In this document: positions 1-15,064 of the stretch, one piece after another | Position numbering within the stretch: position 1 is the first letter of the stretch | How the letters are laid out: each line of letters begins with the position of its first letter | NCBI GenBank assembly: GCA_000004695.1 | Contig: CM000154.2 | Span: forward strand, 160,001-224,000 | Source of the DNA: Dictyostelium discoideum | Taxonomy: Eukaryota | Length of the DNA stretch: 64,000 nt | Direction of reading: 5' to 3' | Translations under genes and position numbers: made by a program | Notes under the pieces: model-generated | Told to the model about the DNA's origin: nothing | The model's input: the letters and a program-made list of their open reading frames with translations, nothing else | Databases searched by the model: none

Positions 1-189
1 GAACATGATTACATTCGTGCCCATTACATTCATGATTATGATGTTTGTCCATCTGTTGTTTCTTTTTGTTTTTTTTATTATTTTTTTATTTTTTTATTTT
101 TTCATTTTTTTTTCAATTCCCAAAAATAAATTTTTTATGACTTTAAAAAAAAAAAAAAATTTCCTTTTCATCTTCTTTTTTTTTTTTTT

Positions 190-642
190 AACAATTATCC
201 AATTTTATTTATTTTTAATATGAATTTAGTATAGATAAATATAAAACTCTAAAATACACAAATCATATTAAAAATAATAAAAAAAAATAAATGTTACCAT
301 TCTTTTTTTTTTTTTTGAATTTTTTTAACCAATTTAAAATTTTATTCTAAAAATAAACCAAATCAAATCAATTTTTTATTTTTTATTTTTTATTTTTTTT
401 ATAAAAATCTATTTTTTTATATAAAATTTATTCCCTACTTGTTGTTCAAAATAAAAAAACAATTACAAAAAATGTGTGTTAAAAAATTAAATTTAAGATT
501 CTAAAAAAAAAAAAAAAAAATTTTATAAAACATAATGATTACATTCATTTTTTTTATATTTTATATCATTTTGTGTATTTTTGAATGTTCTATTTATCTA
601 TACTAAATTCATATTAAAAATAAATAAAATTGAATAATTGTT
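190..642. mobile_element. Putative small non-autonomous (MITE-like) element. Roughly 105-bp imperfect terminal inverted repeats (190..302 and 534..642) flank a 230-bp AT-rich core.
   Basis: The reverse complement of 217..300 (…atttgtgtattttagagttttatatttatctatactaaattcatattaaaaataaataaaattggataattgtt) matches 566..642 (…attttgtgtatttttgaatgttctatttatctatactaaattcatattaaaaataaataaaattgaataattgtt) at about 90% over some 85 bp. The ataattgtt ends lie outermost. A third copy of the same unit lies at 12447..12529. Confidence 0.4.
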
Positions 643-1055
643 AAAAAAAAGAAAAACAAATAAAAAAAAAAAAAAAAAAAAAAGAAAAGTAAAATGAAAA
701 AAAAATGAAAATATTTTTTTTTTTTATTTTTTTTTTTATTTTTTTTTTAATTTGCTCATTTGCAGAAATAAAAAAAAAAAAATATGCGATAATTTTTTTC
801 ATTAAAAACATTATTAAAAAAAAAAAAGTAAAAATATATATATTTACAATTCTAAACATTTATTATATGTTATTAGAAATACTTAAATATGATGGATCCA
901 TACGCAACAACTCATAGAAGATTGAAACAGATACAGTTTGTATTTTTAGTAAAAAAAAAAAAAAAAAAAAAAATAGAAAAAATTACAAAATCTATATATT
1001 AACATTTTTATTTTTATTCTTTTTAATTGTTTAAAACTACAATAGGGGTCATTTT

Positions 1056-5025: not shown

Positions 5026-8000
5026 TTATTTAATTAATAAAGGATTAATTTTAACAGTATCTAAAGGTGGCCACATTGATTTTAAAATGTTTGGTTTAAT
5101 TGTATTAATATTTAACCAAGATAAATATTGATCAAATAGATAATTTGGATTTTCAATCCATTGTTGTAAGAGTTTTTCTTTGGTTGAGATACCTTTTGAT
5201 TTGAGGGTTGAAATTAATTGATAAACTTTTGATTGAGTATTCATTTGAACGATAATTGAAGGATTTGTATTTAAATAGGGTAATAGATATTTTAGAGGTG
5301 AGAAAACTTCGCCCTCTAGTAAAGCCTTGGCAAAGTAACGTATTGATTCCAATTTATCAGGATGATCAATTTTTAGCATTGGCAATTCCCAATGATGAAC
5401 ACCATAATTTGGTTTGATACAACATCTAACACGATCGTGTTTTAGTGAATAATGAGGTGCAGGTTGTTCCAATGGTTTAAACTCTGAACATAATGGTTTA
5501 CCCAATAATGGTAACCAAGATGGATTAATCTCTGTAACCAACTTCATATATGGTCTTGAAGTTTCAATGATATCACAATAGATTACATATTCAGCTTGAG
5601 TATTAACACCACCTAAATTTGAAGTTGGATGAATGAAACATGTTCCATCACCACCACCACTACTATTTGAATATGAGGTTGTGCAAGTTTGATATTCAAT
5701 TAAATGTTTTGGATGATTTTTACCAGTGATTGATTGAGTTTCTTTAACTTTTGAAATTTGATCAATTAAACCAGCTGTTATAACTTGTTTAATGAATAAT
5801 TCTTGTTTTTGAGTTGGTGGTTTAATTGATTGATCAGGATTAACTAAAGTTATAATTGGATTTGAAATTGGATCTAATTCATGATTGGTTTGATTAATTG
5901 AATTTACAATCTCTGTTAATTGATGACGAAGTTTATGAATTTCAGACATTGATTTTGTATTTAAAAAGTTTTGAGAACAAAAATGATCAATATCTTTTGG
6001 TGATTTTCTAATTTGGTAATCATAAGCACCAACAACTTTTAAAATTGATAAAAGATCAGATTCTTTGTGTAACCATTTTCTCATACTATTTCTAAGACGT
6101 TGAAGATGTTTTTGTCTTTCTTCTTTTTCTTTTTCAATAAATTCTTTTTCACTTTGTGATGATGAATCAATTTGTTGTTTTTCATTGTTATCATCATTTT
6201 CATCATTATTTTGATTTGCTTCATAGGCTTCTTTTAAAAATGGATCTTTAACAGTTAAAATTGAAACGATTGCAATGATATAAGGTAAACAATTATGCTC
6301 TTGACCTAATAATAACATTTTAGAATGACGTGGTGAAACTGGAAATTGTGACATTTTCATACCCAATTCAGTGATTGAAAAAGTTTTAACCTCTAAAGCA
6401 CCCAAATTAATTAAAGTACGTAATGCCAATTTCAAAGAAGATTCATCAGGTGGTGTTGGAAATGGAAAACCTGTAATTTTTTGAATACCCATACTTTTCA
6501 TTTGTAATATCATACCATCGATTGGGATCATTAAAATTTCAGGTTTTGAAAATTGTTGGAAATGATCATTGAAAACAGCACTTGAATAAATTCTATAGCA
6601 ATGACCTGGACCTGTTCTACCTGCTCTACCTGCTCTTTGATCTGCTGATGCTTTAGATGTCCAACCAACTTCAAAACTACTAATACCATTATCCTTATTA
6701 TAATATCTTTGTTTAACTCTACCTGTATCAACTACATATTTAATATTTGGTATTGTTAATGATGTCTCTGCCAAATTTGTTGCAACTACTACCAATCTTG
6801 ATCCTAATGGTGGTGTTTGAAAAACTCTCATTTGTTTTGATGTTGGTAATGTTGAATATAATGGTAATACAAATAATGGTCCTGCTGGTTTTTCATCATC
6901 TTCTGTAATTATATCTTCTTTACCAATTTCAAATTCATCTTCATCTTCATTATTATTATTATTATTATTTTCATTTTCATCAACTTCTTCTTCTTCTTCA
7001 ACTTCTTCTTCTTCAACTTCTTCTTCTTCAACCTCCTCTTCTTCAACCTCCTCTTCTTCAACCTCCTCTTCTTCAACCTCCTCTTCTTCAACCTCCTCTT
7101 CTTCAACTTCTTCTTCCTCTACTTCTTCTTCATCATTAACAATAAATTGATCATCATTTAAAACATCTAAATTTTCAATATCATCATTATCATCATCATT
7201 ATCATTATCATCATCATCATCATGATTATCAATATTAAAAGTATCATCAACAGTATTATCAAAATCAAAATCTTCAGCATCACCATAAACTAAATTACTT
7301 GATTTAATATTATTTTGATTTTCTTGATCATCAGATTTAAATTGTTGATTAATTTTATCAATTTCAACTTTAAAAGATTTATTGATTGCTTTAATTGGGA
7401 AAGCTCTTCTTAATTTTGAACAAAGATATTCAATTTCTTGTTTACCTGTAACGAAAACTAAAATACCACCAGATGGTAGGTTTTTATGAATTTTCACCAC
7501 TTTTTTATAACATTCATCGATATAGTTAACTAATTCAGTTTTCTTATTGAAATGGATTGTAACAGGGAATTGTCTAGTTGGTATATTGATGACTGGTGGT
7601 GGTCTAGAAAATAAAGTTTTATTCTTTGTAAAATCTTCAACTCTTAAAGTTGCTGACATCACCACTAATTTCAATGGGTAAATCATATCCACACCAATGG
7701 TACCATTGGCTTTATTAGTAGCCAATGATTTTAAATATAATTTCTTTCTTAATGGTACAATTCTTGATAAAAGTCCAATTAAAATATCAGTATTTAAATT
7801 ACGTTCGTGTGCTTCGTCGATTAAAATTGAAGAATATTGTGATAGGAGGAAATCAGTTTGAACCTCTCTCATTAAGATACCATCAGTCATAAATTTGATT
7901 TTATTAACACTACTATCTAATTTCTTATCATAACGAATTTGGTAACCCACTTCCTTACCAAACTCAACGTTTAACTCTTCAGCGACACGTTTTGCTGTTG

Positions 8001-9844: not shown

Positions 9845-11686
<1,842 letters not shown>

Positions 11687-12097
11687 ATTATAAATGTCTG
11701 TTTTAATGTATCATTACATTTGGAGAAGAAGAAAAAAAAAAAATAAAAAAAAAAAATAAAAAAAATAAAAAAAATAAAAAAATAAAAAATTTCATCGTTG
11801 TGACAAAACATTACCTGTTCAAAAAAAAAAAAAAAATATTTTTTTTTTTTTTTTTTTTTGCGACACAATAAGTTTTCATTTTAAAAAATAAATAAAAAAA
11901 ATATTTTTAAATATCTAAAGATTCTAATCTCTTTTATTAGTTTTTTAAATTTTATTAGATAAACTAACACCAATGGTCAAACAAAATGTTTTTGCTGAAA
12001 TTAATAATGGTTTTTTCAAACTCATTCAGTTTTAACTTCGAATGGTTTAATCTATGGCGCAAAGTTTAGAAATGTTAATGACGATTTTCAAGTGAAA

Positions 12098-12363
12098 CAG
12101 GAATTTGAAAAAAACCACTTCCCAAAGTCGTATCAGGTGGCCAATTTTTATCAAGGAAAGCTGTATCATCAAGTGCCTCCCTCTGTCTCTTGATGATTCA
12201 GCCTTCCTTGACAAAAATTGCCCACCTGATACGACTGGGAAGTTGGTTTTTCAAATTCAATCTGTAGAACAATTTCTTGATTGACGAAAGGCATATATTA
12301 TATATTCACCCAATATTTTGATTCTTCTCTGATCGAGTGAATATATAATATATAAATTTTAAA
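12098..12363. repeat. Hairpin-forming element: a near-perfect 167-bp palindrome (12098..12264; 75-76-bp arms about 90% complementary, 15-nt loop) plus a second perfect 17-bp-arm hairpin (12293..12309 / 12347..12363). Candidate MITE or structured ncRNA.
   Basis: The left arm caggaatttgaaaaaaaccacttcccaaagtcgtatcaggtggccaatttttatcaaggaaagctgtatcatcaag reverse-complements the right arm cttgatgattcagccttccttgacaaaaattgcccacctgatacgactgggaagttggtttttcaaattcaatctg with about eight mismatches. Around the loop tgcctccctctgtct, complementary sub-stems tcaaggaaagctg/cagccttccttga and atcatcaag/cttgatgat continue the palindrome. Downstream, atatattatatattcac...gtgaatatataatatat is a perfect inverted repeat. 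The element is markedly more G+C-rich than its surroundings. Confidence 0.6.
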
Positions 12364-12446
12364 ATAAAAAATATACTCACCCATCAAACCAATTTTTTTA
12401 TTTTTTTTTTTTTTTTTTTTCATATCTATTTTTTTTATTATAAATG

Positions 12447-12529
12447 TCATTTTTTGTATTTTTGTGTGCTCTATTTATCTATACTAAATTCATATTAAAA
12501 AAAATGAATGTAATCATTCTAGAATTGTT
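12447..12529 (+). repeat. Third copy of the dispersed repeat unit (tcatttt..gtatttttgtgtgctctatttatctatactaaattcatattaaaa…aatgtaatcattctagaattgtt), immediately downstream of the palindromic element.
   Basis: A 58-bp core is about 90% identical to 567..625 and to the reverse complement of 217..275. The tail aatgaatgtaatcattct resembles aaatgttaccattct at 285..302. Confidence 0.55.
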
Positions 12530-12539
12530 TTTTTATTTT

Positions 12540-12668
12540 TTATTTTTGTGATAAAATATAATTTTCCATATTTGAATATACAATACTACCTAACCCACTT
12601 GCAGGGTCAAAACCAGTTATAGCCTTATAACCAAATTCACAGCAATACATACGATTACAATTATTATT

Positions 12669-12702
<34 letters not shown>

Positions 12703-14823
12703 AAATTATATTTATAATTAGTACTATAATTAGAAATATAAAATATAATATAATAATTACCATTTATAATATCATTAAAAACATTTGGACTTTCTTCAGC
12801 AGCTTGGTATAATAAAGGATTTAAGAAACCTAATGTTGATTTTCCAGAATTTAATAATTTATCATTTATTAATGAAAACATTGCAGCAATTGATGGTGAT
12901 GAGCATGATGTACCATCAACTGATATAGTTATACAAGGGCATAAATTCGATGAAACATTATTAGATTGTACAATTGAGTATTTAGAACCAGCAAGTGAAA
13001 TATCAGGATATGCACGATTTGATGAATTAAAACTGAATGATGGGGGTAATGAGGATGGTTGTTGCTCGAGATACCTATTTACAGCATTAGTTTGATATTG
13101 TGGTTGAGATTGTGTAACTGAAAAACCACCACCAGATGTAATGATTGAACCTGACTGAATTGAACAAACTGATTCAGGTTGTGGTGATTCATAAATTTCA
13201 GTTGCACCTACTGATGTAACATAGGGTGAACTTGCAGGGAATTCTGGGTTGAAGACAGGTCCATTTGATGGATCAAAACTGTATCCAACCATTTTAAAAC
13301 CTTCACCTGATACTGGAGTTAAATCTTCACATAAACATGAAGAATAAATATGTGTATAACCAAACACATCAAACTCATATTGAAAATCACAATGAGCATT
13401 AACTTGTTGGAAAGTACCCAATGCATCAATTACCTCTGGAACAATGATTAATTCTCTACATGCAATACCCATTTGGTTGACTGGATAAAAACAGTTTGGT
13501 GATTCTGTAAAATTTGAATTTACAATTGTAATAGTTGCACAATTGGTAGTTGTGTGCTCACAACCACCAAATGGACAATAACCATTGATACCATCTACTG
13601 GACAATTACCAAACACATCAAAAAATCCAGGGGAACCATCGTCACCTGAACTTACGAATATTGAAGTACCACGTAACCCAATTTTTTGAAATTCAACATT
13701 AGTTCTCTCAATGTAAACCGTAGAATCCACACCAAGATTATTACAATCTTGTGTGATTTCACATTGTTCCATTTCAATCCACCCATAGGAAATCGAAGCT
13801 ACATTTGGAATTGGATCAAATGCTTGAATCGATGTACACCAATCCAATACCCATTCACCACTACCCGATTCAAGAAACATTGTTGTAATATTATTACCAA
13901 TGGCAGTCATATACTGAACATCTAAATCCGATTCAAGTTGTCCACAACCTTGTTCATAACAAAGTGGACTTCCAGCATTTAAAACTCTAACATTTTCAAT
14001 TGAAAATTGTTGATCAAATGTTTCCAATGCACCAGTACTATAATAATCTGAAAAAGCACCTATTGATTGAACATTCTTTGAATTTGTACCAATAGTATCA
14101 TTTGGAATACCATAATAATCTTTCAATACTTGAGGTGAAATTGACAACTGTTTTGAAATACCAACAATATCATCTCTTGATTTTCTCATAGTCTCACTCA
14201 TTTTATTATCTTCAATAAAATCTGATAAACCCAAAACCAAATCAATTTTATTTAAAACATTTATTGGGATTGATGCATCACCAATAATTCTAATTCTTTC
14301 TTTATTTGAAATTTCTGATTTATAAATTCCAAAATTTGTTTTAAATAAATTTGATGCTTTTAAAATATTAATTCTAATTTTAATATAATCTGAAAAAACA
14401 ATCATTTCACTTTTATTAATTTTATTATCAAATAACCAATTTAAAATAATTTCAACATCTTTTTTTGAAGGTGAAATAATTGAATCAATCTCTTTTGAAC
14501 TTAAAAATTTTCCATAATTTAAACTTTTTGGATTTGAAATATCCCAAAATTTTTCTTTTAAAATATTTAAATTATTCTTTTTTTTTTTTTATATATTAGT
14601 ACCTATTTATTTTTTATTTTTTTTTTTTTTAAATAAAACTCACTTGTTTGATTAAAATTTTAAATTCTATTATTTCATTTTCATTTGGTAAACTTTTAAA
14701 ATTAAAGTATGAAGGTGGATTTCTAATATTTGCAATAGTTTCACGTTTTAAACCATCACCACTATTCTCTTTTGCATTTGCAAATAAAATAATAACTAAT
14801 AATATGATTAACTTTAAAATCAT
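12540..14823 (-). CDS. Sedolisin / tripeptidyl-peptidase I-like serine peptidase (MEROPS S53), secreted, about 738 aa. complement(join(12540..14576,14644..14823)).
   Basis: Exon 1 carries a signal peptide (MILKLIILLVIILFANA) and ends at CAA|GTGAGT. Exon 2 enters at ...aaaaaag|AATAATTTA. The C-terminal catalytic region contains the S53 active-serine motif VDGTSCSSPSIAAMFSLIND; a GFLNPLLY block follows. An N-terminal pro-region of the expected size is present. Confidence 0.8.
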
Positions 14824-15064
14824 TTTATAAGTGCACTTGTAAATTAATGAAAAAAAAAAAAAAAATAAAAAAATGAAAAATAAAAAAAAAAAACGAATGG
14901 GCGAAAACACACATCATCATAACCTTAGATTTTTCAAAATATCTTTTTTTTTTTTTTTTTTCCAAAATATCTTTTTTTTTTTTTTTTTTTTCAAATATCT
15001 TTTTTTTTTTTTTTAAAAAAAAAAGTTTTAAATTAATTAAACAATTGTTTATTTATTTATTTTT

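Follow-up and report, generated by a model that had tools for sequence, protein, structure and literature searches.

The G+C-rich palindrome between FDXR and a sedolisin gene of Dictyostelium discoideum AX4 is almost certainly the precursor hairpin of the known microRNA gene ddi-mir-1176

The window analysed here is a stretch of 64,000 nucleotides of chromosome 5 of Dictyostelium discoideum AX4 (chr 5 160001-224000). Two protein-coding genes, both on the minus strand, frame the locus of interest: FDXR (adrenodoxin reductase, XP_637256.1 family), with its first exon at 11462-11686, and a sedolisin gene with a Pro-kumamolisin activation domain and an S8/S53 peptidase, with its 3' exons at 12540-14405. 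A first-pass annotation, made from the letters alone, had placed three features between them, a G+C-rich palindrome, a perfect hairpin and a copy of a dispersed repeat, and it was right about both neighbours. The near-perfect palindrome at 12098-12264 is real. On the plus strand it forms a hairpin of 67 bp with internal mismatches and a small apical loop, and its G+C content is 41% vs 18% in each intergenic flank. Within the 64-kb window it is present as a single copy.

The view that no coding feature explains this block, and that a short ORF just upstream is fortuitous, held up as well. No homologue and no Pfam match turned up for the small ORFs of this region, neither for the two that run over the hairpin nor for those upstream. 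When the concatenated six-frame translation of 11960-12300 was searched against 5.8 billion proteins, none was returned at E ≤ 10, so that no protein source was found for the G+C-rich block. A tRNA scan of the window was also negative.

The locus was recognised through the literature. Fragments of the palindrome arms matched the pri-mir-1176 rows of an oligonucleotide table in the supplements of Liao et al. (2018, RNA Biol 15:937, PMC6161686); a full-text sequence search of the main texts of papers with 14- to 16-mers of the arms gave no match, and the arm sequence was not found in the supplements of Edelbroek et al. 2024. Seven oligonucleotides for pri-mir-1176 or mir-1176 map to the locus, five of them exactly, and their expected order and orientation are kept. 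The exact matches are the primers F1025 (11793) and F1026 (11860, at the start site), the sense 3'RACE primers F1023 (12178) and F1050 (12201), and the antisense RT primer RT1083 (12320-12341), which lies within the loop and 3' arm of the second hairpin. Two or three oligonucleotides of the table, which was derived from a PDF, differ from the window by one base within a short run of the same base. The mature sequences given by Meier 2016 (PLoS Genet, PMC4894637) both occur exactly and only once, on one strand of one hairpin: ddi-miR-1176-5p, CCAAUUUUUAUCAAGGAAAGC, at 12141-12161 and ddi-miR-1176-3p, CUUCCUUGACAAAAAUUGCCC, at 12203-12223, both on the plus strand. In AX4 chromosome 5 coordinates the 5p site is 172141-172161, where identity with mir-1176 predicts CCAATTTTTATCAAGGAAAGC.

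Position and strand point to the same gene. A run of 21 T at 11839-11859 on the plus strand corresponds to the published T-rich promoter motif of pri-mir-1176, AAATATTTTTTTTTTTTTTTTTTTG (Liao et al. 2018, text and Table S3), and Table S3 places the last G of this motif at DDB0232432:171860, which is window position 11860 plus 160000. The run of T followed by G thus lies at 11839-11860 on the plus strand of DDB0232432 (chr 5), and the gene as a whole at about 171,860-172,528 of AX4 chromosome 5, plus strand. We are as good as certain that the palindrome 12098-12264 is the precursor hairpin of ddi-mir-1176 of D. discoideum AX4; this is the same published gene and not just a look-alike. Of the three alternatives offered in the first-pass annotation, the structured non-coding RNA or miRNA-like precursor was accordingly the correct one. 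The locus is already known. Hinas et al. (2007 NAR) introduced it under the name mica1190, and today ddi-mir-1176 and one other gene are the best-characterised miRNA loci of Dictyostelium.

The architecture of the published transcript can be retraced in the window sequence. The primary transcript, pri-mir-1176, spans 11860-12528 on the plus strand (669 nt). Its start-site G at 11860 is 281 nt upstream of the first base of 5p, and its wild-type 3' end at +388 from the 5p start corresponds to 12528, both in agreement with the published distances; from 12528 to the TAA stop of the convergent sedolisin gene (12540-12542) there are 12 nt, again as published. The two 3' ends of the intermediates described in drnB- cells, +243 and +248, fall at 12383 and 12388, just before a U-rich tract, and a templated AAA at 12386-12388 (+246 to +248) fits the remark of Liao et al. 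(2018) on position 248. All four published distances are reproduced from the window sequence. The whole of 12098-12529 lies within this one mapped 669-nt primary transcript, which explains all three features of the first-pass annotation at once.

What is known of this transcript comes from experiment. Its m7G cap and its sensitivity to alpha-amanitin identify it as a Pol II product, its full-length 3' end is not polyadenylated, and the T-rich motif at its start is common to 14 intergenic miRNA loci (Liao et al. 2018, PMC6161686). Both 5p and 3p arise by a maturation that requires DrnB, a Dicer-like enzyme of the nucleus, and RbdB, which binds dsRNA and acts as its partner; without DrnB or RbdB the pri-mir-1176 accumulates and mature miR-1176 is gone (Liao et al. 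2018, PMC6161686; Meier 2016, PMC4894637). In drnB- and rbdB- strains, 17 miRNAs that had been identified earlier are lost, miR-1176 among them; read depth and Dicer dependence are taken from that literature. The 5p strand is the one that accumulates, above all in development, where miR-1176 is up-regulated. The shorter ends at +243 and +248, which may carry short oligo(A) tails, pile up in drnB- cells, and the authors attributed them to unknown ribonucleases, with TRAMP and the exosome as a suggestion (Liao et al. 2018, PMC6161686).

The hairpin has the structure expected of such a precursor. As an inverted repeat it consists of arms of 48 nt at 12126-12173 and 12189-12236, 92% complementary and 15 nt apart; when folded, the stem extends to 12101-12177 and 12185-12258, with 67 pairs between 77-nt arms (87%) and an energy of -91.4 kcal/mol, or -0.55 kcal/mol/nt. 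The comparison with shuffled controls came out far in favour of a real structure: with -93.7 kcal/mol (z -15.8), the plus strand of 12090-12270 folds better than every one of 200 dinucleotide shuffles. In the minimum free energy (MFE) fold, 5p and 3p form a duplex in which 18 of the 21 nt of each strand are paired, with 2-nt 3' overhangs at both ends; 12142 pairs with 12220 and 12161 with 12201, and 12222 and 12223 pair outside 5p. In the predicted fold, 5p and 3p thus face each other with 2-nt 3' overhangs, which is the signature of a Dicer product. The miRBase criteria for high confidence, as used by Liao et al. (2018), ask for a folding energy below -0.2 kcal/mol/nt and for a duplex with 3' overhangs of 0-4 nt and at least 60% of its nucleotides paired; the hairpin has -0.55 kcal/mol/nt, overhangs of 2 nt and 18/21 paired. 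Their further requirements, at least 10 reads per arm, homogeneous 5' ends and dependence on Dicer (DrnB), are a matter of the published small-RNA data. Whatever can be tested in sequence for ddi-mir-1176, and for a high-confidence miRNA, is found at this locus. An exact match of the 21-nt mature miRNA in metagenomes occurred once, in a contig of 44-58% G+C with unrelated flanks, and was judged to be due to chance.

Folding does not by itself give the strand. The minus strand of 12090-12270 folds at -103.7 kcal/mol (z -14.2, no shuffle as good), which is 10 kcal/mol better than the plus strand, because A.C mismatches of the plus strand become G.U pairs on the minus strand: in the ungapped register this happens at five positions vs two in the opposite sense, and the plus-strand MFE of the hairpin contains zero G.U pairs. 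The minus strand was nevertheless rejected as the transcribed strand, since the orientation of the RACE primers and the mature sequences give plus. Thermodynamics alone would have picked the wrong strand, and this is a caution for sequence scans.

In window coordinates, the published course of events is as follows. Pol II starts at the G at 11860, after the run of 21 T, and the capped, non-polyadenylated transcript of 669 nt carries the hairpin 12098-12264. With DrnB and RbdB it matures to 5p and 3p, which would form a duplex of 21 nt within the hairpin, as seen in the fold. The 3' tail is trimmed to intermediates that end at 12383 and 12388, open to the addition of short A tails.

The promoter side of the gene faces FDXR, which diverges from it. 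The run of 21 T is one half of a homopolymer block, A16-TAT-T21, that forms a perfect palindrome at 11821-11859, between FDXR and the miRNA gene. Read on the minus strand, the block gives 16 T followed by G (the complement of 11820), 134 nt upstream of the FDXR ATG, and the distance between this ATG and the miRNA start site is 173 bp. Because a run of T followed by G is found on both strands, the same motif may serve both divergent genes, and the block may act as a core promoter in both directions, towards FDXR as well as towards mir-1176, a proposal that on the FDXR side follows from the letters only. On the other side, the sedolisin gene and pri-mir-1176 are convergent and their transcripts may overlap.

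Downstream of the precursor, the 3' part of pri-mir-1176 contains a second hairpin at 12293-12353 (plus strand), with a perfect stem of 17 bp (arms 12293-12309 and 12337-12353) and a loop of 27 nt. The first-pass annotation had described this perfect hairpin correctly and had only set its end 10 nt too far, at 12363 instead of 12353. It folds at -18.9 kcal/mol (z -4.3). Homopolymer runs apart, the 64-kb window has no other perfect inverted repeat with a stem of this length or longer (17 bp and above, loop up to 40), and 10 simulated Markov-1 windows contained none. Liao et al. (2018) do not mention it, as judged by a search of the text. Counted downstream from the base of this hairpin, at 12353, the two published 3' ends of the drnB- intermediates come after 30 and 35 nt.

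A 3'-to-5' exonuclease complex that threads its substrate is known to leave an extension of about 30 nt before a stable structure, as in the exosome channel and in yeast 5.8S+30. If the second hairpin acted as such a structural stop to 3'-to-5' trimming, the intermediates would end 30-35 nt downstream of it, and it would set the +243 and +248 ends. The spacing of 30 and 35 nt at mir-1176 resembles the footprint of about 30 nt of the exosome channel in yeast 5.8S+30; the oligo(A) tails, and the suggestion of TRAMP and the exosome by Liao et al., would be in keeping with it. The position of the second hairpin thus leads to a hypothesis, open to experiment, on what sets the 3' ends of the oligoadenylated intermediates.

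The last 108 nt of the pri-miRNA, 12421-12528 on the plus strand, are a copy (A) of a repeat of about 100 nt. The first-pass annotation had seen that the repeat is dispersed, with two further copies at the start of the window; its extent, given there as 12447-12529, turned out to be longer. Copy B is at 540-641 (plus strand) and copy C at 289-191 (minus strand), and the three copies are recognised with nhmmer E-values of 1e-20 to 3e-18. They share an identical 26-mer, for which the chance expectation is 0. Copies B and C are the right and left arms of an inverted pair, facing outward around a centre of about 210 bp within 113-723 (about 600 bp). Two divergent genes, an ankyrin-repeat gene that starts at 52 on the minus strand and a gene that starts near 790-870 on the plus strand, lie to either side, and each arm points to one of them from about 150-250 bp upstream. 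In a close relative labelled D. discoideum (GCA_054859385.1) both arms are at the orthologous site; in D. citrinum, 113-723 is replaced by about 17 bp of T-rich DNA. A metagenome scan with the 26-mer gave no match, and the core of the repeat was not found by a sequence search of the literature. On the other strand, copy A is likely to be the 3' UTR of the sedolisin gene.

The repeat appears to be a lineage-restricted unit, and it may be an element of the fold-back or MITE type or else a piece of promoter that was duplicated. It is conceivable, but on balance doubtful, that copy A is the remnant of a mobile or fold-back element through which the miRNA transcript reads, a reading that is compatible with the identity of mir-1176. 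The identical 26-mer of the three copies speaks for it, as does the inverted pair in 113-723, kept by the close D. discoideum relative and reduced to about 17 bp of T-rich DNA in D. citrinum; so do the absence from two related assemblies of a block, 12353-12512, that contains copy A and the weak copy that D. cf. discoideum has at the corresponding place. On the other hand, only three copies were seen in the window, their boundaries are in homopolymer runs so that no target-site duplication can be read, metagenomes and literature gave no sequence match, and the equidistant position of B and C upstream of two divergent genes would also suit a duplicated promoter or 5' UTR segment. The 3' tail of the pri-miRNA would consist of an older, low-copy repeat.

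The orthologous loci of related assemblies were retrieved with the FDXR protein, and about 100 kb of related loci were compared. The hairpin had no BLAST match around FDXR in any of seven related assemblies, two of which are labelled D. discoideum. The identity of the FDXR gene to that of AX4 is 98% in these two (GCA_054859385.1 and GCA_054859355.1), 94% in D. cf. discoideum GCA_054859235.1, 89% in D. citrinum and in D. dimigraforme, and 87% in D. firmibasis. The two close assemblies keep 11792-11882 (with the T run interrupted), 12317-12352, where the second hairpin has its loop and 3' arm, and the part from 12513 onward. They lack 11883-12316, a block of 434 bp that includes the miRNA hairpin, and 12353-12512, a block of 160 bp that includes most of repeat copy A; the junctions show only short microhomology of T runs. 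In D. cf. discoideum the body of the transcription unit is absent, and at the same place there is a weak partial copy of the repeat that is suggestive only (nhmmer E = 0.11). The spacer between sedolisin and FDXR is 365 bp in D. citrinum and 210 bp in D. firmibasis vs 853 bp in AX4, the sedolisin gene is intact in both, and nothing in these two species can be aligned with 11792-12532. That mir-1176 is absent from D. firmibasis is in keeping with the results of Edelbroek et al. 2024, according to which nearly all Dictyostelium miRNAs are lineage-specific and mir-1177 is the sole miRNA conserved among group 4 species.

The direction of this change can be argued both ways. Parsimony over the seven genomes favours a gain of mir-1176 in AX4. 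Loss in the close relatives is favoured by the mismatch of the arms, 8-13% vs a divergence of only 2% between AX4 and these relatives, and also by deletions in the adjacent sedolisin gene of the same relatives; it may be favoured further if copy A is the older. Since the mismatch (complementarity of about 87-92%) is far above 2%, either the hairpin is old and was then deleted in the relatives, or it arrived in AX4 already imperfect. With either polarity, the D. discoideum species complex would be polymorphic for the presence of mir-1176. That such a polymorphism exists and that, in addition, the second hairpin is the stop that fixes the drnB- ends is a joint proposal that we put forward tentatively, as rather less probable than its failure in one part or the other.

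Other readings of the palindrome have to be weighed against these results. The suggestion that it is a MITE or fold-back element had been made in the first-pass annotation and found no support; together with the idea that any small RNAs from it are incidental, we consider it highly improbable. Long imperfect inverted arms, a G+C content foreign to the surrounding intergenic DNA and the location of some other Dictyostelium miRNAs in the thug-S repeat would all suit such an element, and the absence of the 434-bp block 11883-12316 from two close assemblies looks like an insertion/deletion polymorphism. However, this block does not coincide with the palindrome and has no terminal inverted repeats, and comparison with the alleles without it revealed no clean target-site duplication, the empty-like allele having T6 vs T4 on each side in the window. 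Moreover, the palindrome is single-copy in the window, no copy is present in about 100 kb of related loci, and later papers put mir-1176 among the intergenic loci outside thug-S.

An endogenous siRNA-type hairpin, diced heterogeneously, is very unlikely too, if not quite to that degree. The stem, at 67 bp, is long and resembles those of plants, and its lower part, about 12099-12140, amounts to exactly two registers of 21 nt below the 5p start, so that phased duplexes are conceivable; but published data describe a single dominant pair of 5p and 3p of miRBase high-confidence standard, and the strict dependence on DrnB and RbdB and the independence of RdRP that have been published argue for a miRNA as well. 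Least credible of all is a role of the palindrome as DNA, be it a cruciform, a signal for replication or recombination, or a protein-binding site for FDXR or sedolisin. In its favour are the strength of the palindrome on both strands and the many indels that related genomes show at this locus, but FDXR is intact and the hairpin absent in the seven related assemblies, which indicates that the neighbouring gene does not need it, and the transcript, its cap and the mature small RNAs are documented by experiment (Liao et al. 2018, PMC6161686). The precursor hairpin of ddi-mir-1176 thus remains the reading to which the evidence leads, and none of the data speak against it.

As the gene is well characterised, the discovery value of the locus is small, and what value remains is in the relatives without the hairpin near FDXR, the position of the second hairpin and the low-copy repeat. 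According to a text search, the mir-1176 papers discuss neither the second hairpin nor the repeat at the end of the transcript nor the absence from related assemblies. Close relatives that apparently do not have mir-1176 could give the small-RNA field a natural knock-out. There is also a lesson for sequence scans: a miRNA of an amoebozoan is not disproved by being single-copy and unconserved. Hardly any miRNA of Dictyostelium is shared between lineages, and the first-pass refutation test, as far as it concerns copy number and conservation, would therefore have wrongly dismissed a validated miRNA.

The likeness of mir-1176 to known systems is one of type rather than of sequence family. No Rfam family reached its gathering score anywhere in the window, and an E-value search of 11000-13500 gave only sub-threshold matches to miRNA shapes. 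Two of these, MIR1319 (37.3 bits vs a gathering score of 116.6) and mir-31_2 (26.6 bits vs 97), were both hit on the non-transcribed strand; mir-1176, for which Rfam holds no family, is not a member of either and shares with them only a generic long hairpin. The multicopy miRNA loci of D. discoideum that derive from thug-S, and MITE-derived miRNAs, are likewise miRNA hairpins that come from inverted-repeat DNA; in contrast to them, mir-1176 is intergenic, outside thug-S according to the literature, and single-copy in the window.

Plant MIR genes (DCL1/HYL1) are similar in having a long, variable hairpin on an independent Pol II transcript, and in that one Dicer-like enzyme of the nucleus, assisted by a dsRBD partner, is responsible for both sets of cuts, with precursors rarely seen. 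There is no sequence relation between the two, and the pri-miRNA of mir-1176, unlike these, is not polyadenylated. Young plant MIRs have been proposed to originate by inverted duplication of their protein-coding target. Such an origin of mir-1176 found no support, the six-frame search having returned no match.

Within Dictyostelium, ddi-mir-1177, the other model miRNA of D. discoideum, is similar in many respects: its pri-miRNA is likewise intergenic and a capped Pol II product with its start at a G behind a long run of T, and it too depends on DrnB and RbdB and is up-regulated in development. It differs in being conserved in group 4 dictyostelids and in reading through into the downstream gene, whereas mir-1176 has a distinct, non-polyadenylated 3' end, and its hairpin was not matched near FDXR in D. 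firmibasis, D. citrinum or D. dimigraforme. With ddi-mir-1176 itself (Hinas 2007; Meier 2016; Liao 2018) there is no difference: the mature sequences, start, 3' ends, primers, strand and coordinates of the published gene are identical to those found here.

No match to the mir-1176 hairpin was found around FDXR in GCA_054859385.1 or GCA_054859355.1, two assemblies that bear the label D. discoideum and carry an FDXR gene with 98% identity to that of AX4. At the sites corresponding to window 11883-12512 (~5759-5792 in L001/L005, from GCA_054859385.1, and ~3770-3803 in L008, from GCA_054859355.1), most of the pri-miRNA body is missing, and only 11792-11882, 12317-12352 and 12513 onward are retained. 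The two blocks missing from the related assemblies have breakpoints at 12316/12317, in the loop of the second hairpin, and at 12352/12353, the 3' base of this hairpin. Barring a copy elsewhere in their genomes, the two assemblies may represent natural mir-1176 nulls. Upstream, the perfect homopolymer palindrome A16-TAT-T21 (11821-11859) presents a 'T run then G' start-site motif on both strands; the + strand motif serves the pri-mir-1176 start site, and the - strand motif is, by inference, that of FDXR. Relatives that lack the hairpin have a broken T run on the + strand (TTTTCATTTTTTTCTTTTATATT) and an intact run on the FDXR side.

The gene adjoining the miRNA on its other side, a sedolisin (Pro-kumamolisin/S53 peptidase; 12540-14910, - strand), is intact in AX4, D. 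citrinum and D. firmibasis. Only a remnant is left in the two D. discoideum assemblies other than AX4, where window 14840-13057 is gone (L001 5118-5730), and only the first exon and the last ~25 bp in D. cf. discoideum (L007 3557-3760); upstream of FDXR in D. dimigraforme (L004), no such gene is called. This points to the repeated, independent decay of one sedolisin paralogue, in a neighbourhood prone to indels. The 3' tail of pri-mir-1176 is antisense to what is likely the 3' UTR of this convergent gene (12421-12539). Given an AATAAA on the - strand near 12432-12437, the two transcripts may overlap by ~100 nt, in which case double-stranded RNA could form.

The remaining two copies of the repeat known from the pri-mir-1176 tail are the arms of a stretch of ~600 bp at the start of the window (113-723). 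These arms (~150-310, -, and ~520-690, +), each ~100-160 nt long, are inverted and outward-facing, with a centre of ~210 bp between them, and the whole is flanked by a divergent gene pair. A close relative of D. discoideum (L005) keeps the stretch at the orthologous position, and D. citrinum (L006) has ~17 bp in its place. The stretch could represent either a fold-back or MITE-like insertion or a promoter segment duplicated in inverted form. The gene cut by the left window edge (start within 1-52, - strand, beginning MDKHHNHECNGHECNHV) has orthologues called as small ankyrin-repeat proteins of 174-176 aa. Its His/Cys-rich N-terminus includes GAATGTAATCAT, a 12-mer in common with the small palindromic motif near the end of repeat copy A (12504-12519), which is probably a coincidence.

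An exact 21-nt match to miR-1176-5p occurs at 6536-6556 of the metagenome contig Ga0058701_10003014 (L009), which is 13 kb long with 44-58% G+C. It was judged to be due to chance, in view of the size of the metagenome collection; the sequences flanking the match are unrelated.

Downstream of the perfect 17-bp second hairpin (12293-12353), at 30 and 35 nt from its base, lie the published 3' ends of the drnB- intermediates (12383-12388). Such spacing would be expected if a 3' exonuclease that threads its substrate through a channel were to stall at this hairpin.
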